A stretch of 64,000 nt of DNA, taken from NCBI GenBank assembly GCA_963731925.1, contig CAVSXK010000024.1:64147-128146 (forward strand), read 5' to 3'. The notes beneath the pieces were generated by a model. It made no database searches and had not been told where the DNA came from. It was given only the letters and a program-made list of their open reading frames with translations. The translations under genes and the position numbers were made by a program. Positions 2,609-20,306 of this stretch are shown piece after piece. Origin of the DNA: an uncultured Actinomycetes bacterium. Its GTDB lineage: Bacteria; Actinomycetota; UBA4738; HRBIN12. Within the stretch, counting starts at the first letter, position 1. Each line of letters opens with the position of its first letter.

Positions 2609-3404
2609 CGCCCGTGAGCGTCACGCCCTCGACGAACACCCGTTGCGCGAGGAAGAACAGGACGATCACCGGGACCATGAACAGCACCGATGCGGCCATC
2701 GTCAGGTTCCACTGGACGTGGAACTGCGACTCGAACTCGGACAGCGCGATCGAGAGCGTCCACTGGTCGGGGTTTTCCACGAGGTAGAGCAAAGGCGAGA
2801 AGAAGTCGTTCCAGGAGTAGAGGAACTGGAACAGCGCAACCGCCGCGATCGCCGGCTTCGCGAGCGGAACGATGACCCGCGTCATGATCTGGAACTCGCT
2901 CGCCCCGTCGACGCGCGCAGCGTCCGAGAGGTCCTCCGGGATCGTGAGGAAGAACTGTCTCAGCAGGAAGATCGTGAACGCGTCCCCGAAGAACAACGGC
3001 ACGACGAGCGGCTTGATCGACCCGATCCAACCGAACCGCACGAAGATGATGTACAGGGGCACGATCGTCGCCTGGACGGGCAGCATCAGGGTCGAGAGCA
3101 CCAGGAGGAAGACGCCCTGCCGGCCGCGCCAACGGAGCCGCGACAAGGCGTAGGCAACGGGGATGCAGGACACGATCACGCCGATCGTGGCCAGGGCCGC
3201 GATCCGGAACGTGTTCCACGTGTACCGGAGGAGCGGGATCTCCCGGAACACATCCGAGAAGTTCGACCAGCGGAACGGCCGCGGCCACAGCGCCGGGGTG
3301 AGCGCCTGCCGGTCCGTCATGAGCGCCGTGAGGACGATCAGGACCACCGGCAGCAAGAAGACCGCAGAGACCGCGATCAACACGGTGTGGTTCGCCACGC
3401 CCAT
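2598..3404 (-). CDS. carbohydrate ABC transporter permease (MalG/UgpE-like)
   Basis: C-terminal 268 aa of the 594-aa ORF: six TM helices and the EAA-type signature (DAARVDGASEFQIMTRVIVPLAKPAIA). Upstream in-frame sequence is R-rich garbage, so start is placed at ATG 3404. Confidence 0.85.
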   Translation of the reverse strand: MGVANHTVLIAVSAVFLLPVVLIVLTALMTDRQALTPALWPRPFRWSNFSDVFREIPLLRYTWNTFRIAALATIGVIVSCIPVAYALSRLRWRGRQGVFLLVLSTLMLPVQATIVPLYIIFVRFGWIGSIKPLVVPLFFGDAFTIFLLRQFFLTIPEDLSDAARVDGASEFQIMTRVIVPLAKPAIAAVALFQFLYSWNDFFSPLLYLVENPDQWTLSIALSEFESQFHVQWNLTMAASVLFMVPVIVLFFLAQRVFVEGVTLTGVKG

Positions 3405-3496
3405 CAGGAAGCGGCGGCGGCGAACGTCGGGTGCCTCGGGGCGTCGGACGATCTGCGCGGCTTCGCGAGGTCGGGACCGGACGGCGGTGTCAACGG

Positions 3497-4420
3497 CTAT
3501 TTGAACCCACCCGCCTGATAGTGGACCCAGTGCCTGGACGAACGGATCAGCAGCGCGGTGCAGGCGAGCGTGAGCAGCAGCAGCATCCAGGCCATCGCCG
3601 ACGCGTAGCCCATCCGGAAGTCGGAGAAGCCCTTCAGGTACAGGTAGATCGAGTAGAAGAGCAGCGACCCCTGTGGGCTCCCGACGGCAGCCGAGGCCTC
3701 CTCCGTCGCCTGGCCGGAGACGGCGAAGCTCGCGACGTACGCCTGCGTGAAGTACTGGAAGCCGGCGATGACGCCGATCACCAGCGTGAAGAACAGCACC
3801 GGCGACAGCGACGGCAAGGTGACGTGTCGGAACTTCTGCCACGGGCTCGCCCCCTCGATGTCCGCGGCCTCGTAGAGCTGCCTCGGGACGTCGAGGAGTC
3901 CGGCCAGGTAGATGATCATCGTCTGTCCGACCACCCACAGGCCGAGGAACAACAGCCCCCATTTCGACCAGAAGGGATCGTAGAACCACAGCGGCGGGTT
4001 CTTGATCCCGATGCCGGAGAGCAACTGGTTCACCGGTCCGGTGGCCGGATTGAAGATCACGAAGAACGCGAGTGCCGCCGCCACCGGGGGCGCCATCGTC
4101 GGGAGGAACAGGATCGTCCGATAGCCCTTCACGCCACGGCGAGGCCTGGTCAGCAACATCGCCGTCCCGAGTGCGACCAGCATCGAGAGCGGAACGCCCA
4201 CGCAGATCATCCAGATCGTGTTCCGCATCGCCTGCCAGAACTGCGGGTCCTTCGTGAACATGAACCGATAGTTGTCGAGCCCGACGAAGCTCGGGGTGGA
4301 GAGCAGGTCGTAGTTCGTGAACGAGTAGTACAGGCTCGCGAGGGCCGGATAGAGGATGAAGACCGAGAACCCGATGATCCACGGCGACATGAACAGCGCC
4401 GCGGTGGTGTAGCGCCTCAC
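3497..4420 (-). CDS. carbohydrate ABC transporter permease (MalF/UgpA-like)
   Basis: Real part of the 458-aa ORF: ...ALFMSPWIIGF... and EAA loop (EAADIEGASPWQKFRHVTLP). The conserved N-terminal pattern RRYTTAALF-SPWIIGF shows the start is upstream of ATG 4390. GTG 4420 chosen; CTG 4483 is also possible. Confidence 0.8.
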   Translation of the reverse strand: MRRYTTAALFMSPWIIGFSVFILYPALASLYYSFTNYDLLSTPSFVGLDNYRFMFTKDPQFWQAMRNTIWMICVGVPLSMLVALGTAMLLTRPRRGVKGYRTILFLPTMAPPVAAALAFFVIFNPATGPVNQLLSGIGIKNPPLWFYDPFWSKWGLLFLGLWVVGQTMIIYLAGLLDVPRQLYEAADIEGASPWQKFRHVTLPSLSPVLFFTLVIGVIAGFQYFTQAYVASFAVSGQATEEASAAVGSPQGSLLFYSIYLYLKGFSDFRMGYASAMAWMLLLLTLACTALLIRSSRHWVHYQAGGFK

Positions 4421-4508
4421 CGTGGCGCGACGGGCCGCCGGCCTCCTCTTGGGGAGGGGCCGGCGACCCGTCGACGAGGTCAGGGCCTGTGCGATCCCGC
4501 CTCCGTCC

Positions 4509-5855
4509 TCAGGACGCCGCCTCGATCTCGTCGTTGATCTGCTGTGCGACCGCCTGCAGTCCCGCCTGGAGATCGGCGACGTCTCCCGCCTGCCAGCGCT
4601 CCGCGAAGTCGCCGAGGAGGTTCTGATCGGTCGATCCGATGATGGACATGTCCTTGTAGTGGGACCCCGGGTTCCCGAAGATGTCGAGGAACGTCTGGAA
4701 CTGCTCGGGCAGGTCCAGCTCGGGAGACTCGAGCGAGGGCAGCGTGGTGGGGACGTTGCCGATCGCGTTCGCCGCCGCGACGAGCGAGTCCGTGTCGGTC
4801 GCCATGAACGACACGAGCAGCCACGCCTCTTCGGGGTGCGCCGACCCGCGGGGGATCCCGATGATCGTTCCACCGACGCGACCGATGCCGTACGTGTCCG
4901 CCTTCTCGTCCGGCACGGGGAACGGCGCCGTCGCGTAGTTCAGGCCTGGGGTCCCGTTCGCGATGAACGCGGTCCGCCACTCCCCGTCGATCGCCATCGC
5001 GATCCGGCCGTTCTGGAAGTCCTGGCTCGCCTCGCCCCACTCGTCGCCCTGTCCGGCGACGAACTTCCGCAGGTTGTCCGCGCCGTAGAAGTCGACGAGG
5101 TCCTTCTGCCACTGGAAGAGCTCGACCCAGTCGGGGTCCGTCCCGATCGCCGAGGTCCCGTCGTCGTTGTAGAAGTCCGCGCCGAAGGTGATCGCCAGTT
5201 CCGGCGGGGTCATCATGTAGTAGCCGAACCACGGGACGAACCCGGCGCGCTCGATCGAGCCGTCCGCGTTGAACACCGTCAGGTCCTTCGCCATCTGCGT
5301 GAGCTCGGACATGGTCTGCGGCGGCTCGGTGTAGCCCGCCTCCTCGAGGATGTCCGTGTTGTAGTACAGGCCGAGCGCGTCCGTGAGGAACGGGAACGCG
5401 CACTGCTTGCCGCCGAACCCCGTGTACCGGGCGACCGACGGCGGGAACACGCTCGCGTCGAAGTCTGTCGCCTCGGTGTACGGCGTGAGGTCCTGCCACG
5501 CGCCCGTGTCGCAGAACGCGGGGAGATCGTCCAGCGACCACGACATCACCGCGTCCGGAGGCGTCCCGGCGCGGATCGCGCTGATCACCTTCTGGTCGCT
5601 CGCGACGCCCTTCCGCACGTCGACCGTGATCCACGGGTACTCCTGCTCGAATCGATCGAAGACCTGCTGGACACCCGCGACCTCGTGGTCCGCGCTGAAC
5701 GGTATCCACATCTCGATCGTGACCGGCTCCTGCTCCTCGCCGGCCGCTCCGGTCTCACCGAGACCTTCGGGTACCTCGCTCTCACCGTCACCTGCCGTGC
5801 ATGCCGCGGCGATGAGTCCGAACACCGCCAGCACCACCAGCCATCGCTTCATCAT
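4509..5855 (-). CDS. ABC transporter substrate-binding lipoprotein (family 1 extracellular solute-binding, sugar-type)
   Basis: 448 aa with signal peptide plus lipobox (LIAAACTAG) and SBP_bac_1-like composition. SD GAGAGGGGG upstream. Forms an operon with the two permeases. Confidence 0.9.
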   Translation of the reverse strand: MMKRWLVVLAVFGLIAAACTAGDGESEVPEGLGETGAAGEEQEPVTIEMWIPFSADHEVAGVQQVFDRFEQEYPWITVDVRKGVASDQKVISAIRAGTPPDAVMSWSLDDLPAFCDTGAWQDLTPYTEATDFDASVFPPSVARYTGFGGKQCAFPFLTDALGLYYNTDILEEAGYTEPPQTMSELTQMAKDLTVFNADGSIERAGFVPWFGYYMMTPPELAITFGADFYNDDGTSAIGTDPDWVELFQWQKDLVDFYGADNLRKFVAGQGDEWGEASQDFQNGRIAMAIDGEWRTAFIANGTPGLNYATAPFPVPDEKADTYGIGRVGGTIIGIPRGSAHPEEAWLLVSFMATDTDSLVAAANAIGNVPTTLPSLESPELDLPEQFQTFLDIFGNPGSHYKDMSIIGSTDQNLLGDFAERWQAGDVADLQAGLQAVAQQINDEIEAAS

Positions 5856-5877
5856 GTTCGCGCCCCCTCTCGTCCGA

Positions 5878-7053
5878 TCAACGTCCTCTCACGTCCTCGC
5901 TCGAACCGCCACCCAACACGCTCATCGCGGAGCCACCCCCTTGCGTGCGCGTGAAGAGCAGATCCTGGGCCACCTGCAGCGCCATCCACACCGCTCCGAG
6001 GACGACGGCCTCCTCGCCGAGCGGCGAGATCTCCAGCCGCACCTTGAACGGCAAGATCGCCTTGAGTGCCTGCCTCACCGGCTCGAGGAGCAGGTCACCG
6101 TTCCGCCCGATCCCGCCGCCCAAGATCACCAGCTCGGGGTCGACGATCGGGACGATCGCTGCGATCGCGAGCGCGATCTGTTCGGCCTCCAGGGCGACGA
6201 CGCGTTGTGCGATGCGATCGCCGCGACGGGCGGCCGCGAACACGTTCCGCGGGGAGACCGGCGGCTTCATCCCGAGCTCTCGAGCGATGGCGACCACGCC
6301 CGACGCTCCGGCACGCGTGTCGAGGGCCCCGCGCTTGCGGAGCGATCGATCCTTCGGATCCCCGATCAGGGGGAGGTACCCGACCTCGCCGGCCGCTCCG
6401 GTCTCGCCCCGATACAGCTCGCCGCGCATGACGAGCCCGGCGCCGACACCCGTACCGACGTGCAGGTACACGAAGTTCGCGACGTCCTTGCCCAGGCCGA
6501 GCCACTGCTCCCCGAGCGCCGCAAGGTTCACGTCGTTCTCGATGCCGACCTTGGTTCCGAGCCCCTCCTGCACCGCCTGCACCAGACCCGTCCTGCCCCA
6601 TCCGGGCAGGGCGTGGGCGAGGGCGACGTGCCCCGTGACCGGATCGAAGACACCCGGGCTGCCGACCGTCGCGAAGGTCACCTGCTTCCAGCGCACGCCC
6701 GCCTCGGCGGCGAGCCCGTGAGCGATCTCGCCGATCTGGGAGATGAGCGTGCGCTGGCTCCGCACCCGTGCTCGCTCGTCCCGACGCGCGACGATGTCCC
6801 CGGAGAGGTTCGCGATGGCGGCACGCACGTAGTCGCGGCCGACGTCGAGGCCGACCACCCACCCCGCTCGAGGGTTCAACTCGTACAGGACCGCAGACGG
6901 TCCACGGCTCCCGCTCGACCGCCCCGCCTCCCGGACGAGGCCCGCGTCGACCAACGCGACGAGCGCCTGCGAGACCGTCGGCTTGGACAGGTCGCTGTCC
7001 CGAGCGATCTGGGCCCGGGAGACGGGCCCCATCTGCCGGACGAACTCGAGCAC
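5878..7053 (-). CDS. ROK-family transcriptional regulator (NagC/XylR-like repressor)
   Basis: N-terminal wHTH (SRAQIARDSDLSKPTVSQALVALVDAGLV). ROK sugar-kinase-like core with ATP/zinc motifs (GLDVGRDYVRAA, HVGTGVGAGLV, GETGAAGEVGYLP). Confidence 0.85.
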   Translation of the reverse strand: MLEFVRQMGPVSRAQIARDSDLSKPTVSQALVALVDAGLVREAGRSSGSRGPSAVLYELNPRAGWVVGLDVGRDYVRAAIANLSGDIVARRDERARVRSQRTLISQIGEIAHGLAAEAGVRWKQVTFATVGSPGVFDPVTGHVALAHALPGWGRTGLVQAVQEGLGTKVGIENDVNLAALGEQWLGLGKDVANFVYLHVGTGVGAGLVMRGELYRGETGAAGEVGYLPLIGDPKDRSLRKRGALDTRAGASGVVAIARELGMKPPVSPRNVFAAARRGDRIAQRVVALEAEQIALAIAAIVPIVDPELVILGGGIGRNGDLLLEPVRQALKAILPFKVRLEISPLGEEAVVLGAVWMALQVAQDLLFTRTQGGGSAMSVLGGGSSEDVRGR

Positions 7054-7164
7054 CGAACGCTCGTTGATCGCCTTCAGCAGGCTCGGCGTGCCGGCGGCGA
7101 ACGGGTGAACGGCCGTTTGGTGCGCCCCCTCTAGTTCGGTTCGCTCTCGTCTCGAGTAGCTCTA

Positions 7165-7184
7165 GTTCGGAAACTTTCCTAACT
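7165..7184. promoter_or_regulatory. operator-like palindrome GGAAACTTTCC (gttcGGAAACTTTCCtaact) in the ROK / eda-kdgK divergent intergenic region
   Basis: An AT-rich 11-bp inverted repeat in a 70% GC genome. A 15-nt block is identical (as reverse complement) to 11726-11740. Lies ~30 nt upstream of the eda start and ~115 nt upstream of the ROK start. Confidence 0.55.
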
Positions 7185-7210
7185 ATTCTCGCCGATGCTA
7201 CGCTCGACCC

Positions 7211-7855
7211 CTGAGCGCAGTCAAGGCACCCCGTCCGGACACCACGATCTTCGATACCCGCAGGGTTCTCGCGGTCGTACGGTTCCGAGATCCGTGCGAC
7301 CTCGACGCGATCGTCGAGGCGATACGTCGTGGCGGCATCGACCTCGTGGAGGTGACGGCGGACACGCCCGGCGCGATCGACGCGGTGCGACGAGCTGCAC
7401 GGGCCGGGGCCCCGGTGGGGGCGGGGACGATCGGCTCGGCGACGGAAGCGCGGGCGTTCGGCGAGGCGGGAGCCGCCTTCCTCGTGAGCCCCGGGGTGAT
7501 GCCGGAGGTCGTACGGGTCGCCGTCGAGCTGGGCATCCCTGCGGTGCCGGGGGCGCTCTCCCCGACCGAGATCGCGACGGCCCAAAGAGCCGGGGCAACC
7601 GCCGTGAAGCTCTTCCCGGCGAGCCTCGGCGGTCCCGGCTACCTGCGGGTCCTTCGAGGCCCGTTCTCCGACGTGCGTTTCGTCCCGACCGGAGGCATCG
7701 AGCCCGCCGACGTGAGGTCGTGGTTGGACGCGGGCGCCACGTGCGTCGGGCTTGGTTCCGCACTCGTCGGGGCCACCCCTCCCGCAACGCCCGGCGACCT
7801 CCGAGCGCTGACCGAGCGTGCACGTCGCGTCGTGCGGCTCGCGGGGCGGCGATGA
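7211..7855 (+). CDS. eda: 2-dehydro-3-deoxyphosphogluconate (KDPG) aldolase / KHG aldolase
   Basis: Track ORF 7346..7855 (GTG) is truncated. The same frame upstream reads ...TTIFDTRRVLAVVRFRDPCDLDAIVEAIRRGGIDLVEVTADTPGAIDAV..., aligning to the Eda N-terminus. The only in-frame candidate start is CTG 7211, so the start is uncertain or affected by an indel. Ends in an ATGA overlap with kdgK. Confidence 0.75.
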   Translation: MSAVKAPRPDTTIFDTRRVLAVVRFRDPCDLDAIVEAIRRGGIDLVEVTADTPGAIDAVRRAARAGAPVGAGTIGSATEARAFGEAGAAFLVSPGVMPEVVRVAVELGIPAVPGALSPTEIATAQRAGATAVKLFPASLGGPGYLRVLRGPFSDVRFVPTGGIEPADVRSWLDAGATCVGLGSALVGATPPATPGDLRALTERARRVVRLAGRR

Positions 7856-8760
7856 CGCCGGTTCCCGATGTCATCGCGCTGGGTGAGACCATGCTCTCGC
7901 TCATCGCCGTCGGGGTCCCGCTCGCCGAGGCATCCGAGCTCCGCGTGACGCACGGCGGTTCCGAGAGCAACACGTGCGTCGGGCTCGCTCGGTTGGGACT
8001 TCGGGCCGCGTGGGTGAGCCGTCTCGGTTCGGATCAAGCCGGGGATCGGATCGCTTCGGATCTCGGTCGCGAGGGCGTCGACCTCCGGTGGGTGCGCCGC
8101 GACCCAGAACGGCCCACCGGGCTGATGCTGCGCGGAACGTCGGGCGCGCCGGCCCGGTACGAGCGCGCCGGCTCCGCGGCGAGCGCGCTCTCCCCGAGCG
8201 ATCTCGACGGCGTTCCGGTGGAGGATGCCGGGGCCGTGATCACGAGCGGGATCACCGCCATGCTCGGTGCGGGTCCGCAGGAAACGGCGATCGCGCTGCT
8301 GGAACGCGCCCGCGGGCTCCGCGTGGTCGATCCGAACCTGCGTCTCGGCCTCTGGGGCTCGGACCGAGCCGGCGAGCTCGTCCGGCCCCTGCTCGAGCGC
8401 GCCGACCTCGTGCTCGGCGGGGAGGCCGAGCTCGCCGCGCTCGTCGGGGGCATCGGGCGCGAGCTCGCCGAGCGATGCCGCGACCTCGGACCGAGCGAGG
8501 TCGTCCTGAAGCTCGGCGCGGACGGGGCGGCGGCGTTCGACGAGGAGGGCAGGTGGTGCGAGGTGCGTCCGCCGCGGAGCGCCGAGGTCGACCCGGTCGG
8601 CGCCGGCGACGCGTTCGACGCCGGGTATCTCGCTGCCCGGCTGCGAGGGGCGTCGGTGGAGGACGCCCTCCGGCAGGGGGCGCGTTGCGGCGCCGGCGTG
8701 GCGGGGATGGTCGGAGACACCGCGGGCTTCCCCACGCTCGCCGAGATCGAAGGAGGGTGA
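7852..8760 (+). CDS. kdgK: PfkB-family sugar kinase, 2-dehydro-3-deoxygluconokinase-like
   Basis: MTPVPDVIALGETMLSL..., GSESNT, C-terminal DPVGAGDAFDAGYL (PfkB anion hole). Translationally coupled to eda (ATGA). Confidence 0.8.
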   Translation: MTPVPDVIALGETMLSLIAVGVPLAEASELRVTHGGSESNTCVGLARLGLRAAWVSRLGSDQAGDRIASDLGREGVDLRWVRRDPERPTGLMLRGTSGAPARYERAGSAASALSPSDLDGVPVEDAGAVITSGITAMLGAGPQETAIALLERARGLRVVDPNLRLGLWGSDRAGELVRPLLERADLVLGGEAELAALVGGIGRELAERCRDLGPSEVVLKLGADGAAAFDEEGRWCEVRPPRSAEVDPVGAGDAFDAGYLAARLRGASVEDALRQGARCGAGVAGMVGDTAGFPTLAEIEGG

Positions 8761-8762
8761 CG

Positions 8763-9158
8763 ATGACGAGAGACGCCCGGCAGCCCGAGGGCGTGGCCCG
8801 ACCGGCGCTTCCGTACAGCCCGGTCGTCGTGACCGGCGATCTGGTCTTCACCGCGGGACAGGTCGCACTCGATGCCCGGGGCGACCTGGTCGCCGGAGGG
8901 ATCGAAGCGCAGACCGCGCAGGTGCTCGACAACCTCGCGCGCTGTCTGGACGGCGTGGGCTGTTCGATGGAGGACGTCGTGAAGGTGACGGCGTTCCTGG
9001 CCGATCTCGCCGATGCCGACGGCTACAACCGTGTCTACGCGACACGGTTCGCCCCGCCCTACCCGGCTCGCTCGACGGTCGGAGCGCGGCTGGCCGACAA
9101 CCTGCTCGTCGAGATCGAGGCGATCGCGCGACGGGCCGGCGACGGAGCCAACCTCCTA
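8763..9158 (+). CDS. ridA: RidA/YjgF family reactive-intermediate (enamine/imine) deaminase; no in-frame stop
   Basis: MTRDARQPEGVARPALPYSPVVVTGDLVFTAGQVALDARGDLVAGGIEAQTAQVLDNL...LVEIEAIARRAG matches RidA over ~130 aa. The frame then reads through antisense of the convergent DSD1-like gene until 10448. The stop was presumably lost to an indel; the end coordinate is approximate. Confidence 0.65.
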
Positions 9159-10427
9159 GAAGAACGTCGCGATGGCGTCGACGACCCGGTCGCCGTCGTC
9201 CAGGACCGGGAGTACGCGCCAACGATCGAGCGCCGAGCAGGGGTGCGAGATCCCGCACATGAGGAGGTCGCCGACCCCCAGGGAGACGCCGCTCCCGACG
9301 CGGCAGTACGCGTGTTGGTCGTCGAGCGAGGTGATCTCGATCCGTCCGTCGATGCGCTCCACCTCTCCCCCGGCTCGTCGAACGAGGGTCGGCGTCGGAT
9401 ACCCCCGGTCGAACGGCACGTCGCGTCGTCCGAGACCCACCAGCGCGAGCCCTCGTTCGGGGGTGGAGAGCACGGCCCCCCAGGCTTCGAGCGTGGGATG
9501 GAAGCGGCGCTCGAGAGGCTCGTTCGCGAACGGCGAGGAGCGGGCGTCCGGGCCCGAGTCGTGGATCAGGTAGGAGCCGCAACGCAGGAGCACGGTCGAC
9601 GGCCCGGACCCGCCGCCGGCCAGCCGGTCGACGACGAGGTCGAAGAACAGGCTCCCCCCGGCCGTCACGATCGGCTCGCGCGCGAACGCACCCTCCTCGA
9701 GCAAGCGCATCGCCAAGCCACCAAGGTCGTCGAGGAACGCCTCCACCTGACCGAGGCTCGCCGGAGATCGATCGTGCGCGATCGTCCCTTCGTAGCCGGC
9801 GACCCCGGCGAGATCGAGCAGCTTCGAGCGTTCGACGGCGCGGGCCACCTCGATCGCCTCCGGCAGGCTCCGGCATCCCGTTCGACCCGCCCGGTGACCC
9901 AGCTCGACGAGGACCGAGAGAGGCCGATCCTCGCGGGAGTCGCGGACCCCCTCTTCGAGGAGGGCGACCCCACGGGTCGAATCGACCAGGCACACGAGCT
10001 CGGTCGTCTCCTCCGCGATGTCGGCGGCGGCCCACCGGAGCGACCCCGGGTCGGTGAGCTCGTTCGCGAGCAGCACTCGTCGCACCCCGGCCGCGCGCAG
10101 CACCCGCGCCTGTGTGGCCCCCGCGGCGCTCATCCCCCAGCCGCCCGCGTCGAGCTGCTTCCACCAGAGCTGGGGAGCCATGGTCGTCTTGGCGTGCGGC
10201 GCGATCGACACCCCATGCTGCCCGCAGTACCCGGCCATCAACCGGACGTTGTGCTCGAGCGCCGTCCGACGCAGCACGAGGACCGGTGGGACGAGGTCCG
10301 CGAACGTCCACCCCTGGTCCCCCGCCTCGAGCAACGGGACGGGCTCCGCGATCGTGGGGAATCCCTTGGTCGTGGACCCGACCCGGACCTCGGCCAGCAG
10401 CGCCTCGGCCCCGGCCGCGCTGGTCAT
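9156..10427 (-). CDS. DSD1-family PLP-dependent enzyme (alanine-racemase-fold N-domain plus D-serine-dehydratase-like C-domain); candidate amino-sugar-acid dehydratase
   Basis: 423 aa from ATG 10427 (MTSAAGAEALLAEV...). PLP-lysine region HAKTTMAP typical of the fold-type III DSD1 / D-threo-3-hydroxyaspartate dehydratase family. Start overlaps the GH4 stop (ATGA). Confidence 0.8.
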   Translation of the reverse strand: MTSAAGAEALLAEVRVGSTTKGFPTIAEPVPLLEAGDQGWTFADLVPPVLVLRRTALEHNVRLMAGYCGQHGVSIAPHAKTTMAPQLWWKQLDAGGWGMSAAGATQARVLRAAGVRRVLLANELTDPGSLRWAAADIAEETTELVCLVDSTRGVALLEEGVRDSREDRPLSVLVELGHRAGRTGCRSLPEAIEVARAVERSKLLDLAGVAGYEGTIAHDRSPASLGQVEAFLDDLGGLAMRLLEEGAFAREPIVTAGGSLFFDLVVDRLAGGGSGPSTVLLRCGSYLIHDSGPDARSSPFANEPLERRFHPTLEAWGAVLSTPERGLALVGLGRRDVPFDRGYPTPTLVRRAGGEVERIDGRIEITSLDDQHAYCRVGSGVSLGVGDLLMCGISHPCSALDRWRVLPVLDDGDRVVDAIATFF

Positions 10428-11692
10428 GAACGGAAGCGCGGCAGATGATCGCGGTTCGCGTCGAGGATCGCGGTGAGCAGGCCCGAGGCGGTCGGGTAGT
10501 CGGGCACGAGCGGGTTCGACAGCAGCGCCCTCAGCGCCAGCACGCGGTCGCCGCTCGTCGCCGCGCGGATCGTGAGCCGCTCGTACGCCTTGGCGTGCTG
10601 CACCAGCCCGAGCATCTCCTCCGAAAGCGGCGCGACCGGCAGGGGGTGAGCGCCTTCGGCATCGATCGTCGCTGCGACCTCGACGACGTCGTCGAGGGGG
10701 AGGTTGGGGATCGCGCCGGCGTTCCGGACGTTGACCACCTGCACGTCGCCGGTCCCGGCCGCGAGCGACGCAACGAGCTCCGCGGCGGCCTCGCTGTAGT
10801 AGGCGCCGCCGCGTCGCTCGAGGAGCTCGGGCTTCTCGGTCAGGTTGGGGTCCCGGTACATCTCGAGCAGCCGCGCCTCGATCTCCATGACCTCTTCGGC
10901 CCGCGTCCTCCCACGGCGTTGCTCCTCGACGATCTCTCGCGTCAGGTAGTAGTAGCGGAGGTAGTACGACGGGACGGCCCCGAGAGCCCGGATCAGCTCG
11001 GATGGCATGTCCGTCTCGCGCGAAAGCTCTGGGAGGTCGGTCTCGAGCAGCGCGGGGAGTCGGTCGACTCCGTCGACCATCACCGCACGCACCCACGAGA
11101 GGTGGTTGAGCCCGACGTGCTCGAGCTGCACCCGCTGCGGCTGCACGTCGAACCGGGTCGCGAACCGGCGCTGGAGGTTGATCGCGACGTTGCACAGACC
11201 GAGCGCCCGATGGCCCTCGTCGATCAGGGCCTGGGTGACCATGCCCGTCGGGTTCGTGAAGTCGACGAACCATGCCCCGGGCGCGCCGCGGCGAGCCGTG
11301 AGCTCCGCGAGCTCGAGCACGACGGGGATCGTCCGAAGCGCTTTGGCGAACCCACCCGGGCCGGTCGTCTCCTGCCCCACGCACCCGAACCGGGGCGGGA
11401 TCGTCTCGTCGGACAGGCGCGCGGCCTGACCGCCGACCCGAAGCTGGACGATCACGAAGCCCGCGCCCTCGAGGGCTTCGTCGCGATCGGTGGTGAGGAT
11501 CAGGTGACCCCCGTACCCGGCACGGTCGAGCATCCGGCCCGCGAGCCCACCGACGACGTCGAGCCGATCCCTGTCCACGTCGAGCAGGGCCAGCTCGTCG
11601 ACGGGGAAGCGCTCGATGCGGCGGACGAAGCCCTCCACGAGCTCGGGGGTGTAGGTGCTCCCGGCCCCGACCACGGCTACCTTCACACCCAT
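10424..11692 (-). CDS. glycoside hydrolase family 4 (NAD+/Mn2+-dependent 6-phospho-glucosidase / alpha-glycosidase)
   Basis: 422 aa from ATG 11692: MGVKVAVVGAGSTYTPELV (Rossmann NAD site), GH4 signature region ...CNVAINLQRRF..., and a typical C-terminal domain. Confidence 0.85.
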   Translation of the reverse strand: MGVKVAVVGAGSTYTPELVEGFVRRIERFPVDELALLDVDRDRLDVVGGLAGRMLDRAGYGGHLILTTDRDEALEGAGFVIVQLRVGGQAARLSDETIPPRFGCVGQETTGPGGFAKALRTIPVVLELAELTARRGAPGAWFVDFTNPTGMVTQALIDEGHRALGLCNVAINLQRRFATRFDVQPQRVQLEHVGLNHLSWVRAVMVDGVDRLPALLETDLPELSRETDMPSELIRALGAVPSYYLRYYYLTREIVEEQRRGRTRAEEVMEIEARLLEMYRDPNLTEKPELLERRGGAYYSEAAAELVASLAAGTGDVQVVNVRNAGAIPNLPLDDVVEVAATIDAEGAHPLPVAPLSEEMLGLVQHAKAYERLTIRAATSGDRVLALRALLSNPLVPDYPTASGLLTAILDANRDHLPRFRS

Positions 11693-11717
11693 CGCCGGGC
11701 ATCGTACACTCACGCCG

Positions 11718-12791
11718 ATGAATTGGTTAGGAAAGTTTCCTGACCCATTCCTGGCCGAGATCGCCGGGCAGGCAGAGGCGATTCGCCGCGCCGCGGGCTC
11801 ACTCGAGGAGCAGGTCCCCACCCTCGACGCGCTGGGCGAAGCGGCGGGGCGAGGTGGCGGCGTCGTGTTCACCGGCATGGGCAGCTCGTACGACGCGTGC
11901 TACCCGGCGGTGAACGAGCTGGCCGCTCGAGGCGTGCCGGCGCTCCACGTCGACGCGGCCGAGCTCCTGCATTTCCGGACCAACGCGCTGTCGTCGGACA
12001 CCGTGCTCGTCGTGGTGAGCCAATCGGGCGAGAGCGCCGAGATCGTGCACCTCGCCGCATCGCTGAATGCCCGCCCGGACCCGCCGCTGATGACGTCGCT
12101 CACGAACGGGCTCGCGAACGAGCTCGCGGAGCGGGCCGACCTTCGACTCGACACCCGCGCGGGCCCGGAGACCGGCCCGTCGACCATGACGTTCGCGGCC
12201 TCGATGGCGCTCCTCGCGGCGGTGGCGCCGATCCTCGGCGGGGACACGACCGCCGATGCCACCGCGCGCGCTCGAACGGGGGCGGAGCGGGCGGCCGGCG
12301 CGGTCGAGGCGTTCATGGAGGTGGGCGACGCCACGGGCTCGTTGCTCGAGGACGTCGTCGACGGGCGCGAGATCCTGGCGGTGCTCGGCCGAGGCTCGGC
12401 GCGGGCGGCCGCCGAGATGGGGGCGCTGACGTTGAAAGAGAGCGGGGTGATGGCCGAGTCGTTCGCGACGGCGAGCTTCCGCCACGGACCGTTCGAGCTC
12501 GCGGGGCCGGACATGGCGGCGATCATCCTGTCGACCGAGGAGCAGACCCGAACGCTGGATCTCGGCCTCGCGGCGGATCTGGCGAGCACGGGCGCATCCG
12601 TCGCCGTGATCGCGCCCGGCGAGGAGGTTCCCGCCGGTTGTGCCCGGATCCACCTCCCCGGCCTCGACCGCCTGTTCTCTTCGACGGTCGGGGTCGTGCC
12701 GCTCCAGTTGCTCGCGTGGCGGCTCGCGCTGCGCCACGGCCGCGCCCCCGGCGTCTACACACGCGCGTCGAAGGTGACCACACGTGAGTGA
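11718..12791 (+). CDS. double SIS-domain sugar-phosphate isomerase/deaminase (GlmS-isomerase-domain-like; GlmD/NagB-II/AgaS/FrlB family)
   Basis: 357 aa starting MNWLGKFPDPFLAEIAGQ.... SIS motifs VFTGMGSSYDA and VVVSQSGESAE. C-terminal second SIS domain (RHGPFEL). The paralog at 15626 has the same N-terminal register. Confidence 0.85.
   Translation: MNWLGKFPDPFLAEIAGQAEAIRRAAGSLEEQVPTLDALGEAAGRGGGVVFTGMGSSYDACYPAVNELAARGVPALHVDAAELLHFRTNALSSDTVLVVVSQSGESAEIVHLAASLNARPDPPLMTSLTNGLANELAERADLRLDTRAGPETGPSTMTFAASMALLAAVAPILGGDTTADATARARTGAERAAGAVEAFMEVGDATGSLLEDVVDGREILAVLGRGSARAAAEMGALTLKESGVMAESFATASFRHGPFELAGPDMAAIILSTEEQTRTLDLGLAADLASTGASVAVIAPGEEVPAGCARIHLPGLDRLFSSTVGVVPLQLLAWRLALRHGRAPGVYTRASKVTTRE
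11726..11744. promoter_or_regulatory. second copy of the GGAAAGTTTCC operator-like palindrome (gttaGGAAAGTTTCCtgac)
   Basis: Reverse complement shares 15/15 nt with 7169-7183. Lies 34-52 nt upstream of the GH4 start on the opposite strand. Overlaps codons 3-9 of the SIS gene, which use unusually AT-rich codons (tta gga aag ttt cct). Confidence 0.55.
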
Positions 12792-13398
12792 ACGGCTACG
12801 GACGGCGCTCACGTTCGACGCGGAGCACCCGGACCGGCCGAACGCCTCCGCGGGAGCCGCCGAACGGATCCTGGACGTCCTCGAGGATGCGGGGGCCCGT
12901 GCGACGTTCTTCCTCCAGTCGCGGTGGGCGATGGCGAACCCCGAACTCGCTCGTCGGATCGCAGACGCCGGCCACCTGGTCGGCAACCACTCGACCTACC
13001 ATGCCCGCATGACGCTGTTCTCCGACGACGGCATCCGGGTCGACGTGCGACAGGCCGGCGACACCATCGCCGAGCTGGCGGGCGTCGACCCGCGCCCCTG
13101 GTTCCGGTGCCCGTTCGGAGACGGCCACGACGATCGCCGCGTGCTCGACGTCCTCGAGGAGCTCGGGTATCGGAACGTGCACTGGCACGTGGAGTCCGAG
13201 GACTGGGAACCGTGGAGGACGCCGGCGGAGATCGGCCGAGCGAGCGTGGAGGGCGCGATCGCGCACGGCGACGGTGCCGTCGTCCTGCTCCACACGTGGC
13301 CCCGAGCGACGGCTGCGGCCCTGCCGATCGCGCTCGAGGGGTTGGAGCGCGCGATGGCCTCGCTGGTCACGATCGACGAGCTCGAGGAGCTGCCGTGA
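12784..13398 (+). CDS. polysaccharide deacetylase (NodB homology domain, carbohydrate esterase family 4)
   Basis: CE4 motifs: TFDAEHPD, ATFFLQSRWA (resembles the TFFL... motif), LVGNHSTYHARM (His-His metal site), RCPFGDGHD. GTG start overlaps the SIS stop. Confidence 0.8.
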   Translation: MSERLRTALTFDAEHPDRPNASAGAAERILDVLEDAGARATFFLQSRWAMANPELARRIADAGHLVGNHSTYHARMTLFSDDGIRVDVRQAGDTIAELAGVDPRPWFRCPFGDGHDDRRVLDVLEELGYRNVHWHVESEDWEPWRTPAEIGRASVEGAIAHGDGAVVLLHTWPRATAAALPIALEGLERAMASLVTIDELEELP

Positions 13399-14414
13399 GC
13401 CGGCCCGCGGTGCTCGCGATCGACGGCGGAGGATCGAAGATCGACGCGGTCCTGATCGATCGGGACGGAGCGATCGCCGGGAGCGCTCGCGTGGAGCCTT
13501 CGGACACCGACGGCCAACGGGCGGGCGACCTCGCGGCGATCGGGCTGGCGGTCAAGGCGGCATGCCGTGACGCGCGGATCGACACCGACGAACTGCCCGT
13601 CGCGCGCCTCGGCGTGTTCTGTCTCGCCGGCGCGGATCTTCCCGCCGACGACCGAAGGATCCTCCGTTCGCTCGAGCCGCACCGGTGGACCACCGACACG
13701 ATCCTTCGCAACGACACGTTCGCGGTGCTCCGTGCCGGAACCAACCGGACCTGGGGGGTGGGGGTGGTCTGCGGGTTCGGGACCAACTGCTCGGCGGTGG
13801 CTCCCGACGGTCGGACGTATCGCTTCCCCGCCCTGGGATGGATCGCCGGCGACTGGGGTGGCGGTGCCGACATCGGAGAGGCCGCGATCTGGCACGCCGT
13901 GCGATCCGAGGACGGCCGAGGCGAGCGGACGTCCCTGGCGAGCGCCGTGCCCGCCCACTTCGATCTCCGCCGGCCGAGACAGGTCATGGAGGCGATGTAC
14001 TTCGGCCGTTTGAGCGTGAGCCGGATCGCCGAGCTCCCTCCGTTGGTGTTCGAGGCGGCGGCGGACGGCGACGCCGTCGCCCGATCGATCGTCGATCGCC
14101 AGGCGGACGAGGTCGTGTCGATGGCGACGGCCGCGATCCGACGCCTGCGGATGACGGAGCTCGACGTCCACGTGGTCCTGGGCGGCGGCATCTTCCGCAA
14201 CACGTTCGTACCGTTCCTCGAGCGGGTCGACGACGGGATCCATCGCTCGGCCCCGGCGGCCAGCGTGACCGTCCTCGGTGCACCACCGGTGGTGGGCGCG
14301 GCCCTGCTCGGACTCGACCGCCTGCGCGCGTCCCGCACCGCGAAGGACCGCCTGCGGACCACCTTGACCAAGGATCCGGTCGGCAACAGACTCGATGGCA
14401 AGCGGCGGAGGTAG
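13395..14414 (+). CDS. BadF/BadG/BcrA/BcrD-type ATPase, N-acetylglucosamine-kinase-like sugar kinase
   Basis: N-terminal AIDGGGSKIDAVL (actin-fold phosphate-1 loop). VVCGFGTNCSA. C-terminal VLGGGIF. GTGA overlap with the deacetylase stop. Confidence 0.8.
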   Translation: MSRPAVLAIDGGGSKIDAVLIDRDGAIAGSARVEPSDTDGQRAGDLAAIGLAVKAACRDARIDTDELPVARLGVFCLAGADLPADDRRILRSLEPHRWTTDTILRNDTFAVLRAGTNRTWGVGVVCGFGTNCSAVAPDGRTYRFPALGWIAGDWGGGADIGEAAIWHAVRSEDGRGERTSLASAVPAHFDLRRPRQVMEAMYFGRLSVSRIAELPPLVFEAAADGDAVARSIVDRQADEVVSMATAAIRRLRMTELDVHVVLGGGIFRNTFVPFLERVDDGIHRSAPAASVTVLGAPPVVGAALLGLDRLRASRTAKDRLRTTLTKDPVGNRLDGKRRR

Positions 14415-14416
14415 AG

Positions 14417-15607
14417 ATGGCGCGGATCGTCCTCGATGGTGTGACGAAGGTCTTCGGGACCGACGTGGTGGCGGTCGACGACGTGTCGCTCGAGATCGCC
14501 GACGGCGAGTTCATGGTCCTCGTCGGTCCATCGGGCTGCGGGAAGTCCACGATCCTTCGCATCCTCGCCGGACTCGAGGAGGTGACGGCCGGCGAGGTGT
14601 ACATCGGCGAGAGGCAGGTCACGGACCTCCCACCGAAGGCGCGGGACATCGCGATGGTGTTCCAGAACTACGCGCTCTACCCACACATGACCGTCGAGCA
14701 GAACCTCGGGTTCGGTCTCAAGCTCCGCAGGATGCCGAAGGACGAACGAGGCCACCGGGTGCACGACGTCGCGAAGATCCTCGGTCTCGACGGACTGATG
14801 GAGCGCAAGCCGGGTGAGCTGTCCGGCGGCCAGCGTCAGCGCGTGGCGATGGGTCGAGCGATGGTTCGAGAGCCGGTCGCGTTCCTGATGGACGAACCAC
14901 TGTCGAACCTCGACGCGAAGCTCAGGGTCCAGATGCGCGGGCAGTTCGCCAAGCTTCACGATCGCCTGCGCACGACGACGGTGTACGTGACGCACGATCA
15001 GGTCGAAGCGATGACGCTCGGACAGCGCGTGGCGGTCCTGCGCGACGGCATGCTGCAGCAGGTCGACACGCCGCAGCGTCTGTATCAGTACCCGGCGAAC
15101 CTGTTCGTCGCAGCCTTCATCGGATCGCCGCCGATGAACCTCGTGGGTGCCGAGGTTCGGGGAGGCGCGGTCCGCTTCGCGGGCTTCGAGATCCCTTTGC
15201 CGGCCGACCGGGCCCCGGACGGCCTCGAGGGTCGCGAGCTGATCCTCGGGATACGGCCATCGGATCTGGAGGACACGGCCGTGTGGACGGGACAGGACCT
15301 GCCCACGATCACCGTCCTCGCGGACGTCACCGAGGACCTCGGCTCCGAGGTGAACGTGCTGTTCACGGTGGACGCACCGCCCGTAGAGACCGACGAGACG
15401 CTCGCCGCGACCGAGCAGGACGAAGGCGAGATCCCTCTCCTCGCCGAGGAGCACCGCGCCGTCTTCTGCGCGCGGGTGGACCCCCGGACCTCGTGCGGGC
15501 CCGGGACGCCGATCCGCCTCTCGGTCGACCCACGCCGGTTCCACTTCTTCGATCCCGAGACGGGGCAGGCGCTCACGACCGAGCCCGCCGCGGTAGCCAG
15601 CGCCTGA
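14417..15607 (+). CDS. msiK: sugar ABC transporter ATP-binding protein (MalK/UgpC/MsiK family)
   Basis: Walker A GPSGCGKST, signature LSGGQRQRVA, Walker B FLMDEPLSNLD, H-loop VTHDQ. C-terminal TOBE/MalK regulatory domain. GGAGG SD 7 nt upstream of ATG. Confidence 0.9.
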   Translation: MARIVLDGVTKVFGTDVVAVDDVSLEIADGEFMVLVGPSGCGKSTILRILAGLEEVTAGEVYIGERQVTDLPPKARDIAMVFQNYALYPHMTVEQNLGFGLKLRRMPKDERGHRVHDVAKILGLDGLMERKPGELSGGQRQRVAMGRAMVREPVAFLMDEPLSNLDAKLRVQMRGQFAKLHDRLRTTTVYVTHDQVEAMTLGQRVAVLRDGMLQQVDTPQRLYQYPANLFVAAFIGSPPMNLVGAEVRGGAVRFAGFEIPLPADRAPDGLEGRELILGIRPSDLEDTAVWTGQDLPTITVLADVTEDLGSEVNVLFTVDAPPVETDETLAATEQDEGEIPLLAEEHRAVFCARVDPRTSCGPGTPIRLSVDPRRFHFFDPETGQALTTEPAAVASA

Positions 15608-15625
15608 GGCCGTAGACTCGGGCGC

Positions 15626-16700
15626 ATGAGATCGCTCGAAGGCTTCTCCGACCGCTTCCTCGGCGAGATCGCGGGCCAGCCCGACGCGATGCGACGAGCC
15701 GCGGCGGCCCTCGTCGACCAGCGCGAGGCGCTCGACCGGATCCGCGAAGCCAGCGCGGCCTCGCGCACCATCGTCTTCACCGGCATGGGGGGCTCGTACG
15801 ACGCCTGCTACCCGGCGGTGAACGACCTCGCGGCGCGGGGCGTCCCCGCATTGTTGGTAGATGCCGCGGAGGTCCTGCACTTCCGAAGGCCGATCCTGAA
15901 CGCGCAGACGCTCGCCGTCGTCGTCAGCCAGTCCGGCGAGAGCGCCGAGATCGTGCGCCTGGTGAACGAGCTCGCCAAGCAACGCACGCGGCCGTTCGTG
16001 GTCGCGATCACGAACGGCACCAACAACGACCTGAGCCGGCGGGCTGACATCGAGCTCGACACGTGGGCGGGACCGGAGTCCGGGCCCTCGTCGATGACCT
16101 TCGCGGCCTCGATGACCACGCTCTCCGGTCTGGCCCGGCTCCTCGCCGGCGACAGCGTCGACACCGCGGTCGATCGAACCCGGACGGCGGCGGAGGGAGC
16201 CGCGCGCTCGGCCGAACGGCTCCTCGACGACCCCGAGGCGTTCGCGACCGATCTCGAGGCGTGGCACGGGGGTCGGGACGTGATCGTGCTTGCTCGGTCG
16301 CGGGCCGGCGCGGGCGGCGACCGAGCTCGGAGCGCTCGTCCTGAAGGAATCCGGCGTGATGGCCGAGTCGCTGGAATCCGGTCTGTTCCGTCACGGCCCG
16401 TTCGAGCTCGCCGGCCCGAACATGAGCGCGATCGTCATGGCGACCGAGCCGGAGACCCGGCGGCTCGACCTCGGGCTCGCGGCCGACCTCGTCGACGCGG
16501 GGAGCGCCGTCATGGTGGTCACGCCCGACGGCGAGGCGCCGAAGGGAGCGCGGCCCGTCGCGACGGGCTATCTGGACCGAGCGCTGATGTCGGCGGTCGC
16601 GGTGATCCCCACGCAGCTCCTCGCCTGGCGGCTCGCGGGCGCGCGGGGACGCACGCCCGGCGCGTACACCAGAGCGTCGAAGGTCACGACCCGCGAATAG
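15626..16700 (+). CDS. double SIS-domain isomerase/deaminase paralog; frameshifted near 16293
   Basis: N-terminal ~220 aa in frame of 15626 (MRSLEGFSDRFLGEIAGQ..VFTGMGGSYDA..VVVSQSGESAE). C-terminal ~135 aa in frame of 16290 (LGRGPARAATELGALVLKESGVMAES...RASKVTTRE), co-linear with the 11718 paralog. A single indel lies at ...VIVL|ARS. Confidence 0.7.
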
Positions 16701-19628: not shown

Positions 19629-20300
19629 GTGGCTCGACGCGGGGACCTCAACGGGTGGTGGTTGCTCGGCATCGCCGTGGTCGGCTTCTTCTGGCGGATC
19701 GCGTTCCGGCCCCGCGTCGAGGGGGCCGGACGAGTTCCCTCAACGGGACCCGCGATCGTGGCCGCCAACCACGTGTCGGCGCTTGACGGCGTCGTCCTCG
19801 CGCTCACCACGAGCTCGCGCAGCAGGCGGATGACCCGGTTCCTGGTGGCGGCGGAGTTCTTCCGGAGGATCCGCTTCGGATGGGCGCTCCGGTTGTACCG
19901 TCAGATCCCCATCCGCCGCGGCGAGCGCGATCAGGGCGCCCTCGACGTGGCGATCGAGACGATCCGCGACGGAGCGCTCGCCGGCATCTTCCCGGAGGGA
20001 ACGGTCAATCCGGAGCCGGAGACGGGCCTGTCCCGAGGTCGCAGGGGTGCCGCTCGGATCGCGCTCGCGACAGGAGCACCCGTCGTCCCGGTCGGGATCT
20101 GGGGCACGCAGGATCGATGGCCGAAGTCCGGCCTTCACATCCGGCGTCCGTGGCGTCCGGTGGTTGCCGTCTCGTACGGCGAACCGATCTCTCCGAAGGG
20201 GGCGCCGGACTCGCCCGGGGACGTCCTCGCCTTCACCGACCTCGTCATGGCCGCGATCGCCGAGCAGACAGAACAGGCGAGGAAGCTCGCGGAGGCATAG
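19629..20300 (+). CDS. plsC: 1-acyl-sn-glycerol-3-phosphate acyltransferase (PlsC / LPLAT family)
   Basis: HxxxxD acyltransferase motif (ANHVSALDG). FPEGTV motif. VPVGIWGT. Confidence 0.85.
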   Translation: MARRGDLNGWWLLGIAVVGFFWRIAFRPRVEGAGRVPSTGPAIVAANHVSALDGVVLALTTSSRSRRMTRFLVAAEFFRRIRFGWALRLYRQIPIRRGERDQGALDVAIETIRDGALAGIFPEGTVNPEPETGLSRGRRGAARIALATGAPVVPVGIWGTQDRWPKSGLHIRRPWRPVVAVSYGEPISPKGAPDSPGDVLAFTDLVMAAIAEQTEQARKLAEA

Positions 20301-20306
20301 CGAGCA

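Follow-up and report, generated by a model that had tools for sequence, protein, structure and literature searches.

In Streptomyces, the ROK-family protein CsnR controls chitosanase genes together with the csnREFGHK operon for the uptake of glucosamine oligosaccharides (PMC6097792; PMC5635096). This operon is headed by csnR itself and encodes an ATP-binding cassette (ABC) importer, a GH4 hydrolase and a saccharide kinase (PMC6097792). CsnR (SCO2657) binds an operator, the CsnR-box, before csnA and before its own gene; the consensus of the box, AGGAAANTTTCCT, was deduced upstream of chitosanase genes, and the strongest competitor of CsnR binding is the glucosamine (GlcN) dimer, (GlcN)2 (PMC6097792). 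CsnR operators are present in most such actinomycete clusters (PMC6097792), and at csnN106 the palindrome overlaps the transcription start (PMC3048496). A second route has been described in Pseudoalteromonas prydzensis (Jiang et al. 2022, PMC9537276), where the D-aminoacylase OngB deacetylates N-acetylglucosaminate (GlcNAc1A) from chitin oxidized by lytic polysaccharide monooxygenases (LPMOs), the fold-type III pyridoxal phosphate (PLP) enzyme OngC converts D-glucosaminate (GlcN1A) to 2-keto-3-deoxygluconate (KDG) and ammonia, and KdgK phosphorylates KDG. OngD, a RidA protein, and KdgK are essential in this pathway, some ong clusters add a 2-keto-3-deoxy-6-phosphogluconate (KDPG) aldolase, and the complete pathway has been reported only in Gamma- and Betaproteobacteria (PMC9537276). 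Here we analyze a gene cluster at 2598-16700 of a 64-kb stretch of DNA (contig CAVSXK010000024.1; hereafter the window) from an uncultured soil actinobacterium. We consider it likely that this cluster forms a regulon of the CsnR type, serving glucosamine-rich oligosaccharides that derive from chitosan and are imported, and that it has acquired a glucosaminate branch. The two parts differ in strength: a CsnR-type repressor regulon for chitosan-derived oligosaccharides is proposed with good confidence, and the acquired branch, leading from glucosaminate through KDG to KDPG, with moderate confidence.

An earlier reading of the window from its letters alone (the sequence-only reading) had singled out a duplicated palindrome as unlikely to arise by chance. 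We found the 15-mer GGAAACTTTCCTAAC exactly twice, at 7169-7183 on the forward strand and at 11726-11740 on the reverse strand, and not once in 100 dinucleotide-preserving shuffles; with surroundings of about 70-72% G+C, this bears the claim out. The same reading had proposed a genome-wide search for further sites; we ran it across the 64 kb. Here, the core GGAAASTTTCC, with one mismatch or fewer, occurs in these two places only, and no other site lies within two mismatches of the core or of the CsnR-box consensus. That consensus is matched at 13 of 13 positions at 11729-11741 and at 12 of 13 at 7168-7180. Judged by this match, the palindrome is the published CsnR-box, and the operator and the core of the regulon are already known. 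The sequence-only reading had not recognized the combination of genes as a described pathway, which stands only in part: the csn core and the OngC-OngD-KdgK-KdgA steps have both been described, whereas we did not find a description of their joining under CsnR-boxes. What appears new is the combination, in which a putative glucosaminate branch is fused to a CsnR regulon.

Genes were called from a frame plot of G+C at third codon positions (GC3), the translations of open reading frames, and Pfam and NCBIfam scans. The local G+C content is 0.70-0.72, and the genes form four tightly packed transcription units around the two boxes. From box 1, unit A runs leftwards on the reverse strand with the ROK regulator (5878-7116), a solute-binding protein (SBP; 4509-5855) and two permeases (3497-4411 and 2598-3404), and unit B runs rightwards on the forward strand with eda (7244-7855), kdgK (7852-8760) and ridA (8763-9159). 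From box 2, unit C runs leftwards on the reverse strand with the GH4 glycosidase (10424-11692) and DSD1, a protein of the "D-serine dehydratase-like" family (9156-10427), and unit D runs rightwards on the forward strand with SIS1 (11718-12791), a CE4 deacetylase (12784-13398), a BadF-type kinase (13395-14414), an MsiK-like ATPase (14417-15607) and SIS2 (15626-16700). Successive genes overlap by 4-8 nt. Two copies of one palindromic operator tie these four packed operons to the adjacent ROK regulator, in agreement with the earlier proposal of one regulon of about ten genes under one ROK protein, and Pfam reproduced all of the gene-family assignments made then.

When the locus is set beside the CsnR regulon of S. 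lividans and S. coelicolor (Dubeau et al. 2011, via PMC6097792), the likeness is extensive. The operator consensus is the same, a ROK-family regulator has a box before its own gene, an SBP and two permeases follow the regulator, and the set includes a GH4 glycosidase and a sugar kinase, here under box 2. As at csnN106 (PMC3048496), the operator overlaps a transcription start, in this case a predicted one. The differences lie in arrangement and content. Relative to csnREFGHK, the genes stand in a different order, divided among four operons that flank two divergent promoter regions, and GH4 heads an operon of its own. One of the two operators lies within coding sequence, and the window adds a dedicated MsiK-like ATPase, the CE4 protein, two SIS deaminase-like proteins and the DSD1-RidA-KdgK-Eda set. 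At the level of sequence, the locus passes as a CsnR system in its defining features, namely the operator, a ROK protein with its own box, the importer, the GH4 enzyme and the kinase.

Nine orthologous loci were available for comparison, two of them reached through DSD1 homologues (L006, L007) and the others (L090-L096) through ROK homologues, with 68-87% identity. The sequence-only reading had asked whether orthologous loci conserve the motif; in all nine, exactly two boxes with at most one mismatch lie at the same two junctions, and the -35 and -10 footprints are kept. The content between GH4 and csnR varies. This slot is empty in L094, holds a GyrI-like gene in L092 and L096, DSD1 and RidA in L090 and L093, and a GyrI-like gene with a DegT-type aminotransferase, KdgK and Eda in L091; the full set of DSD1, RidA, KdgK and Eda is found in the window, L006 and L007. 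On this comparison the slot is a variable accessory site, and the sister loci would show how the branch arose. SIS2 was found only in loci with DSD1. Downstream of the permeases, a GFO_IDH_MocA oxidoreductase is present in L091 and L095 and a GH35 enzyme in L092 and L095. Furthermore, L007 is 94% identical to the window in the SBP, 97% in permease F and 99% in permease G, and 57%, 60% and 69% identical in DSD1, SIS1 and KdgK, respectively. This mosaic divergence suggests recombination between lineages within the cluster.

The regulator itself is a CsnR-like ROK-family repressor with an N-terminal winged helix-turn-helix (Pfam ROK, E 3e-45, and HTH_IclR/MarR_2). Its first canonical start is GTG at 7053, the conserved N-terminus reaches about 7116, and the N-terminal TFAAGTPSLLKAINERSVLEF is kept in the orthologues with synonymous variation. 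The stretches free of canonical starts are 7054-7116 (reverse strand) for ROK and 7184-7345 (forward strand) for Eda. Unlike usual ROK proteins, this one (5878-7053, reverse strand) has no cysteine, so that the zinc-binding motif CxCGxxGC is missing; at the corresponding place the sequence is GEVGYLPLIGDPKDRSLRKRG. A protein search returned homologues from uncultured bacteria in all of the 120 closest matches, each with at least 67% identity.

Box 1, the putative operator of the regulator's own gene, was defined by the consensus scan and by conservation. Its core, CGGAAACTTTCCT (12/13; 7168-7180, in an element at 7163-7185), sits within a 23-bp near-palindrome, TAGTTCGGAAACTTTCCTAACTA. A consensus scan predicted the csnR promoter at 7195-7224 on the reverse strand, with -35 TTGACT at 7224-7219 and -10 TAGCAT at 7200-7195; given these positions and counting from the predicted start of csnR transcription, operator 1 would span roughly +9 to +21. 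In the alignment, all ten sequences keep the footprint TTGAC-N18-TAGCAT (or TACGAT)-N14-box. Within the ROK gene's own predicted promoter region, the box follows the -10 element, with the same arrangement in all nine orthologues, and this position is in line with autoregulation of the ROK gene.

Box 2 lies at a more compact junction, where the ATG codons of GH4 (11692) and SIS1 (11718) are just 25 bp apart. Its core, AGGAAAGTTTCCT (13/13; 11729-11741, in an element at 11726-11744), was likewise supported by the consensus scan and by conservation. The sequence-only reading had placed this site between the GH4/DSD1 and SIS operons; the junction is correct, but the site is not intergenic and lies inside SIS1 codons 4-8 (L-G-K-F-P), spelled TTA GGA AAG TTT CCT. 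A scan supported by conservation predicted overlapping divergent promoters at 11682-11710. For SIS1, on the forward strand, these comprise -35 TTCACA at 11682-11687 and -10 TACACT at 11705-11710, and for GH4, on the reverse strand, -10 TACGAT at 11706-11701, the reverse complement of 11701-11706. The block GCATCGTACACT at this junction is conserved in the orthologues and contains TACACT and, on the other strand, TACGAT. Because each -10 ends just before the ATG (7 nt for SIS1, 8 nt for GH4), both mRNAs are probably leaderless. With transcription starts placed on this basis, operator 2 would occupy +12 to +24 of SIS1; counted from the GH4 start, it would lie at -37 to -49 and touch the -35 position.

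The codons of box 2 indicate what has been conserved. Across 24 confident window genes (9,270 codons), TTA occurs nowhere but in box 2; of the 384 Phe codons, 2 are TTT, and 5% of Pro codons are CCT. Calculated from codon usage, the expectation for the whole codon set taken together is about 3e-8. Among the nine orthologues, eight vary in box 2 only at the central N (K or N in the protein), and L096 has one further mismatch in an arm, while the rest of the SIS1 protein is just 52-65% identical across orthologues. The SIS2 paralogue begins MRSLEGFSD and has no box. Since the box uses the rarest codons, is nearly invariant within a divergent protein and is missing from the paralogue, the evidence points to selection on box 2 as DNA, not as protein. 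It could be supposed that box 2 is kept merely as a conserved LGKFP peptide of SIS proteins, or that the boxes belong to a different regulator and not to the adjacent ROK protein; box 2 does lie in coding sequence, and binding of the ROK protein to the boxes is here a prediction. The choice of the rarest codons for this peptide and the different start of SIS2 both speak against such a view. In addition, all orthologues carry the same 15-mer once more in front of the ROK gene, where the DNA is non-coding, and the motif is an operator experimentally shown for a ROK protein (PMC6097792). We therefore regard this explanation as extremely improbable.

The products of the core genes fit the import and cleavage of amino-sugar oligomers. 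The CsnE-like SBP (Pfam SBP_bac_1/SBP_bac_8, E 1e-35) is a lipoprotein whose N-terminus, MMKRWLVVLAVFGLIAAAC, carries a lipobox. It is followed by the CsnF-like permease (BPD_transp_1, E 9e-13; synteny) and by the CsnG-like permease (BPD_transp_1, E 5e-18), the last gene of the csnR operon, which is syntenic in all orthologous loci. The ATPase is of the MsiK/MalK type (ABC_tran and OB_MalK). The CsnH-like, ChbF-like GH4 protein has both the N- and C-terminal GH4 domains (Glyco_hydro_4 and 4C) and is nearest to the phospho-beta-glucosidase subgroup; its best PDB matches are 6-phospho-beta-glucosidases (5c3m/1s6y/1up7, E 2e-102 to 2e-78), and it is 37% identical to Escherichia coli ChbF (E 2e-91). 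The CE4 de-N-acetylase (Polysacc_deac_1, E 5e-25) has no signal peptide in its sequence and is predicted to be cytoplasmic; its NCBIfam matches are NodB/PdaB-like and below cut-off.

The sugar kinase, CsnK-like and NagK-like, belongs to the BadF/BcrAD type (BcrAD_BadFG, E 9e-28), with a match to NagK_SO3507 (E 2e-21) below cut-off; we take Streptomyces CsnK to be of this BadF type as well. SIS1 is a two-SIS-domain protein (Pfam SIS twice) resembling the GlmS isomerase and a putative glucosamine-6-phosphate (GlcN-6-P) deaminase of the NagB-II/GlmD type. Its NCBIfam matches, to the GlmS C-terminal half, NagB_SO3506 and GlmD, are all below cut-off, and its PDB matches are GlmS isomerase domains and 8eol. 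The two SIS enzymes named by the sequence-only reading were both found by family, but SIS2, a paralogue of SIS1, is frameshifted in the window by an extra T at about 16289, probably an assembly error, and is intact with 357 aa in sister contigs. The kinase and SIS families are those of the Shewanella NagK/NagB-II system, with its BadF-type kinase and SIS-type GlcN-6-P deaminase. In contrast to that system, the window proteins score far below the equivalog cut-offs (NagK_SO3507, NagB_SO3506), and there are two SIS paralogues, which are closer to the isomerase half of GlmS.

The order of reactions recalls the chb system of E. coli, in which ChbF cleaves GlcN-6-P glycosides after deacetylation by ChbG (PMC12791066), a deacetylase acting first and a GH4 enzyme then splitting the GlcN-6-P glycoside. 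The regulon might on this account serve mainly chitin-derived, partly acetylated chitobiose, as an ABC-import analogue of chb. The CE4 protein, the kinase and the ChbF-like GH4 enzyme would mirror ChbG and ChbF, and in Streptosporangium roseum the CsnR-box regulon takes in chitinases (PMC6097792). However, the Streptomyces CsnR-box is experimentally tied to chitosanase genes and to (GlcN)2 as effector (PMC6097792), and the cluster contains no GlcNAc-6-P (N-acetylglucosamine-6-phosphate) deacetylase (NagA). The window also differs from chb in its uptake, by an ABC transporter and a cytoplasmic kinase instead of a phosphotransferase system, in its deacetylase, which is CE4 and not of the YdjC family of ChbG, and in its ROK regulator in place of the AraC-type ChbR. 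We judge chitobiose as the main substrate to be distinctly unlikely and retain glucosamine-rich oligomers as the probable one.

The second part of our interpretation concerns the set between GH4 and csnR. DSD1 is a fold-type III PLP protein (Pfam Ala_racemase_N and D-ser_dehydrat), OngC-like and a putative D-glucosaminate deaminase. It overlaps the GH4 stop by 4 nt (10424-10427), has no NCBIfam equivalog, and matches PDB 3gwq, annotated "D-serine deaminase", with E 3e-72. As a reference for OngC we located a canonical ongCRBD, kdgK and GH20 cluster on a Pseudoalteromonas shioyasakiensis megaplasmid, to whose deaminase DSD1 is 33% identical over 395 aa (E 1e-71). DSD1 homologues of Klebsiella and Pantoea had also been considered as ong clusters and were rejected; they stand with an amino-acid ABC importer, RidA and IclR, and were not used as the reference because this context lacks a D-aminoacylase. 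RidA (Ribonuc_L-PSP, E 1.5e-31), an imine/enamine deaminase by family, has 131 aa in sister contigs. The PfkB kinase KdgK (PfkB, E 1e-44; 4-nt overlap with eda) has KDG and 2-keto-3-deoxygalactonate kinases as its best NCBIfam models, below their cut-offs. Eda, an aldolase for KDPG/2-keto-4-hydroxyglutarate (Aldolase, E 1.6e-42), scores 162.9 bits against the NCBIfam eda subfamily cut-off of 156. In pairwise comparison with the Pseudoalteromonas proteins, the RidA, KDG kinase and aldolase set gives weak matches (27% and 25% identity).

We then counted neighbours within 6 kb in the 80 genome loci with the closest DSD1 homologues. A D-aminoacylase was present in 48, RidA in 48, an IclR regulator in 47, KdgK in 42, a GntP-type permease in 34 and Eda in 21; D-aminoacylase, RidA and KdgK occurred together in 34, with Tsukamurella tyrosinosolvens as an annotated example. 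The identity to the OngC-like deaminase and this association with D-aminoacylase, RidA and KdgK lead us to assign the DSD1 family, very probably, to glucosaminate-type deaminases that feed KDG to KdgK and Eda. The GH4/ROK context was shared only by L006 and L007 among the 80 loci, and the unusual feature of the window is that DSD1 stands under a CsnR-box and is coupled to GH4. A literature search for a glucosaminate ammonia-lyase gene turned up nothing beyond the DgaE (6-phosphate) system of Salmonella and a speculative scheme for archaea.

Clusters of the ong-like form RidA-IclR-KdgK / DSD1-D-aminoacylase-(Eda)-GntP are found in many Actinomycetota and in one Chloroflexi metagenome-assembled genome (L013-L083, 34 of the 80 loci, and L089); the genera include Lentzea, Nocardia, Amycolatopsis, Saccharothrix and Tsukamurella, as well as Rhodococcus rhodnii. 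In one locus from an uncultured actinobacterium (L066; region 19837-21140), a perfect CsnR-box at 20691-20703 has on one side a NagB-type Glucosamine_iso gene and on the other a gene whose secreted product begins with a CelD_N (GH9-type) domain. Some 9.5 kb away, beyond unrelated genes, is a DSD1-Eda-KdgK module.

By family, the lower steps of the ong pathway are all present in the window: the PLP deaminase (OngC), RidA (OngD), the KDG kinase and the KDPG aldolase (KdgA). The upper part differs. OngB is missing and the CE4 esterase is the sole deacetylase; the GH20 enzyme OngA, the SSS transporter OngIT, the TonB receptors and the MurR/RpiR regulator OngR are likewise missing, with the ROK protein, the ABC importer and GH4 standing in place of OngR, OngIT and OngA. 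Control is by CsnR-boxes, and the host is a Gram-positive actinobacterium. With OngB, OngR, OngIT and OngA lacking, the locus is not an ong cluster; it appears to work like the lower half of the ong pathway.

A number of observations weigh against the interpretation of a CsnR regulon with a glucosaminate branch. On the side of regulation, no chitosanase or LPMO gene with a box lies within the 64 kb. The likeness to CsnR is in the operator and the gene families, orthology of the ROK protein to SCO2657 being putative, and the best cultured-actinomycete matches (Embleya and Streptomyces, by tblastn in a plasmid collection) are only 46-48% identical; they have no csn synteny and no good box and appear to be paralogues. 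No sigma-70-like promoter for eda-kdgK-ridA was found in the scan around box 1. The conserved N-termini of ROK (TAVHPFAAGTPSLLKAINERS) and Eda (TTIFDTRRVLAVVRFRD) carry no ATG, GTG or TTG in this species and five sister contigs. In Eda no such codon precedes the conserved N-terminal strand, the first canonical start being at 7346. Since canonical starts are missing before these N-termini, non-canonical starts or N-terminally truncated products are implied for both proteins; among the orthologues, GTG or ATG stands at the conserved N-terminus of Eda in L006, L007 and L091 and of ROK in L090. On the side of the enzymes, the equivalog-level NCBIfam matches of KdgK, the SIS proteins, the kinase and GH4 are all below the curated cut-offs, and for this reason the substrates given for the core genes are predictions.

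The branch faces further objections. The Pfam scan found no amidohydrolase gene, and hence no OngB/D-aminoacylase, in window positions 1-20 kb, and tblastn with the Tsukamurella and Pseudoalteromonas D-aminoacylases found none in the syntenic L006 and L007. A D-aminoacylase is usual with DSD1 but not present here, and the substrate may therefore differ. OngC also deaminates D-serine and D-threonine (PMC9537276), and in two sister lineages, L090 and L093, no KdgK-Eda pair adjoins DSD1 and RidA. These last two points, together with the D-serine deaminase annotation of the closest solved structure (3gwq), would suit DSD1 as a general D-serine/D-threonine deaminase for detoxification or nitrogen supply, with KdgK and Eda serving an unrelated sugar acid and no glucosaminate branch at all. 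Against this stand the presence of KdgK at 42 and D-aminoacylase at 48 of the 80 DSD1 loci, the coupling of DSD1 to an amino-sugar glycosidase and its position under an amino-sugar operator, and we consider such a general role very unlikely.

The cluster also contains no dehydrogenase or oxidase able to make glucosaminate. One way to account for this would be the same CsnR regulon with a branch that serves free glucosamine, with glucosaminate made from GlcN by an unlinked dehydrogenase, either within the cell or outside it, much as in the oxidative glucosamine route of pseudomonads. The window has no LPMO or oxidase, the GFO_IDH_MocA oxidoreductase does follow the permeases in L091 and L095, and the Pantoea and Klebsiella DSD1 homologues, with their amino-acid ABC importers, RidA and IclR, would fit uptake of free glucosaminate. 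However, the coupling of DSD1 to GH4 (10424-10427) suggests that the glycosidase releases the substrate of DSD1, and no oxidoreductase is present in the window locus, L006, L007, L090 or L093. We find a free-glucosamine route unlikely, though a reasonable alternative, and favor glucosaminate released from oligomers.

The mechanism that we infer for the regulon with its glucosaminate branch is as follows, with ROK binding, the inducer, each enzyme's substrate, the transcription starts and the origin of glucosaminate all predicted. The ROK protein would bind both CsnR-boxes as a repressor. Box 1 would control the regulator's own transcript (csnR, the SBP and two permeases) and lies upstream also of the divergent eda-kdgK-ridA genes; box 2 would serve the compact bidirectional promoter of the probably leaderless GH4 and SIS1 genes. 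Release of the repressor would, as for CsnR in Streptomyces, be brought about by an oligomer of glucosamine, for example (GlcN)2. Oligomers would be taken up by the ABC importer with the MsiK-like ATPase, stripped of residual N-acetyl groups by the CE4 protein and 6-phosphorylated by the BadF-type kinase; the ChbF-like GH4 enzyme would then split the GlcN-6-P glycoside to give GlcN-6-P, which the SIS proteins would deaminate to fructose-6-phosphate. In parallel, the OngC-like DSD1, translationally coupled to GH4, would convert D-glucosaminate (GlcN1A) to KDG and ammonia, RidA would assist at the imine stage, KDG would be phosphorylated by KdgK, and Eda would split the resulting KDPG into pyruvate and glyceraldehyde-3-phosphate. 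The favored source of glucosaminate is the oxidized reducing end of LPMO-cut oligomers, which would be freed by the co-translated GH4.

A further-reaching form of this mechanism, which we offer as a tentative possibility, is that the hydrolytic and oxidative routes for chitosan and chitin are merged in one repressor-controlled unit. CsnEFG would then import C1-oxidized glucosamine-rich oligomers, GH4 would release GlcN-6-P and D-glucosaminate, and the co-translated OngC-like enzyme would feed an Entner-Doudoroff branch, with CE4 replacing the D-aminoacylase and SIS2 as the branch-specific partner.

Several features of the assembly and its surroundings complete the description. Several soil-metagenome contigs in ENA, with 98-99.5% identity to the window, also encode exactly this GH4 protein. 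In comparison with the sister contigs that aligned at each place, four in each case, the window has one C too many at about 9148, so that ridA loses its stop and the frame stays open to 10448, and the extra T at about 16289 that splits SIS2 is likewise not in them. Because both lie in homopolymers and are missing from near-identical sister contigs, they are probably errors of a long-read assembly, and the RidA read-through and the split SIS2 were rejected as genuine features. Fusion proteins of GH4 with DSD1 and of Eda with KdgK, suggested by long open reading frames at 9156-11702 and 7195-8760, were rejected as well; the GC3 plot and Pfam place separate genes in different frames, and the long frames are open alternative frames, artefacts of high G+C. 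The ridA and DSD1 genes converge with overlapping stop codons (CTAG, 9156-9159) and no spacer, an arrangement in which their operons would transcribe into each other. No intrinsic terminator or terminator-like hairpin was found around the two boxes (6950-7350 and 11550-11900), a scan that lies outside this point of convergence. The whole window (1-64000) contains no Rfam family at the gathering threshold and no gene for transfer RNA or transfer-messenger RNA. A calcineurin-like metallophosphoesterase gene (1514-2608, forward strand) converges on the last permease gene, and a metallophosphoesterase gene is at the same position in L001, L003, L004, L005, L006, L007, L090, L093 and L096.

Both enzyme modules and the principle of regulation have been described before, and the gain is incremental rather than conceptual. 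If our interpretation is correct, the CsnR regulon would extend past uptake and hydrolysis to a complete two-branch catabolic unit, and the glucosaminate route for oxidized chitin would be placed in uncultured soil Actinomycetota. LPMOs are abundant in soil Actinomycetota, and we know of no description of the fate of their aldonic-acid products there. Should the merging of hydrolytic and oxidative routes prove true, it would be the first case of an ong-type pathway controlled by CsnR and lying beyond the Proteobacteria. The locus also shows cleanly, in a natural setting, how the opening codons of a predicted leaderless gene can contain an operator, at the cost of using the rarest codons. Finally, the series of sister loci, with varied accessory modules between GH4 and csnR, may help to work out the role of CsnH and CsnK.

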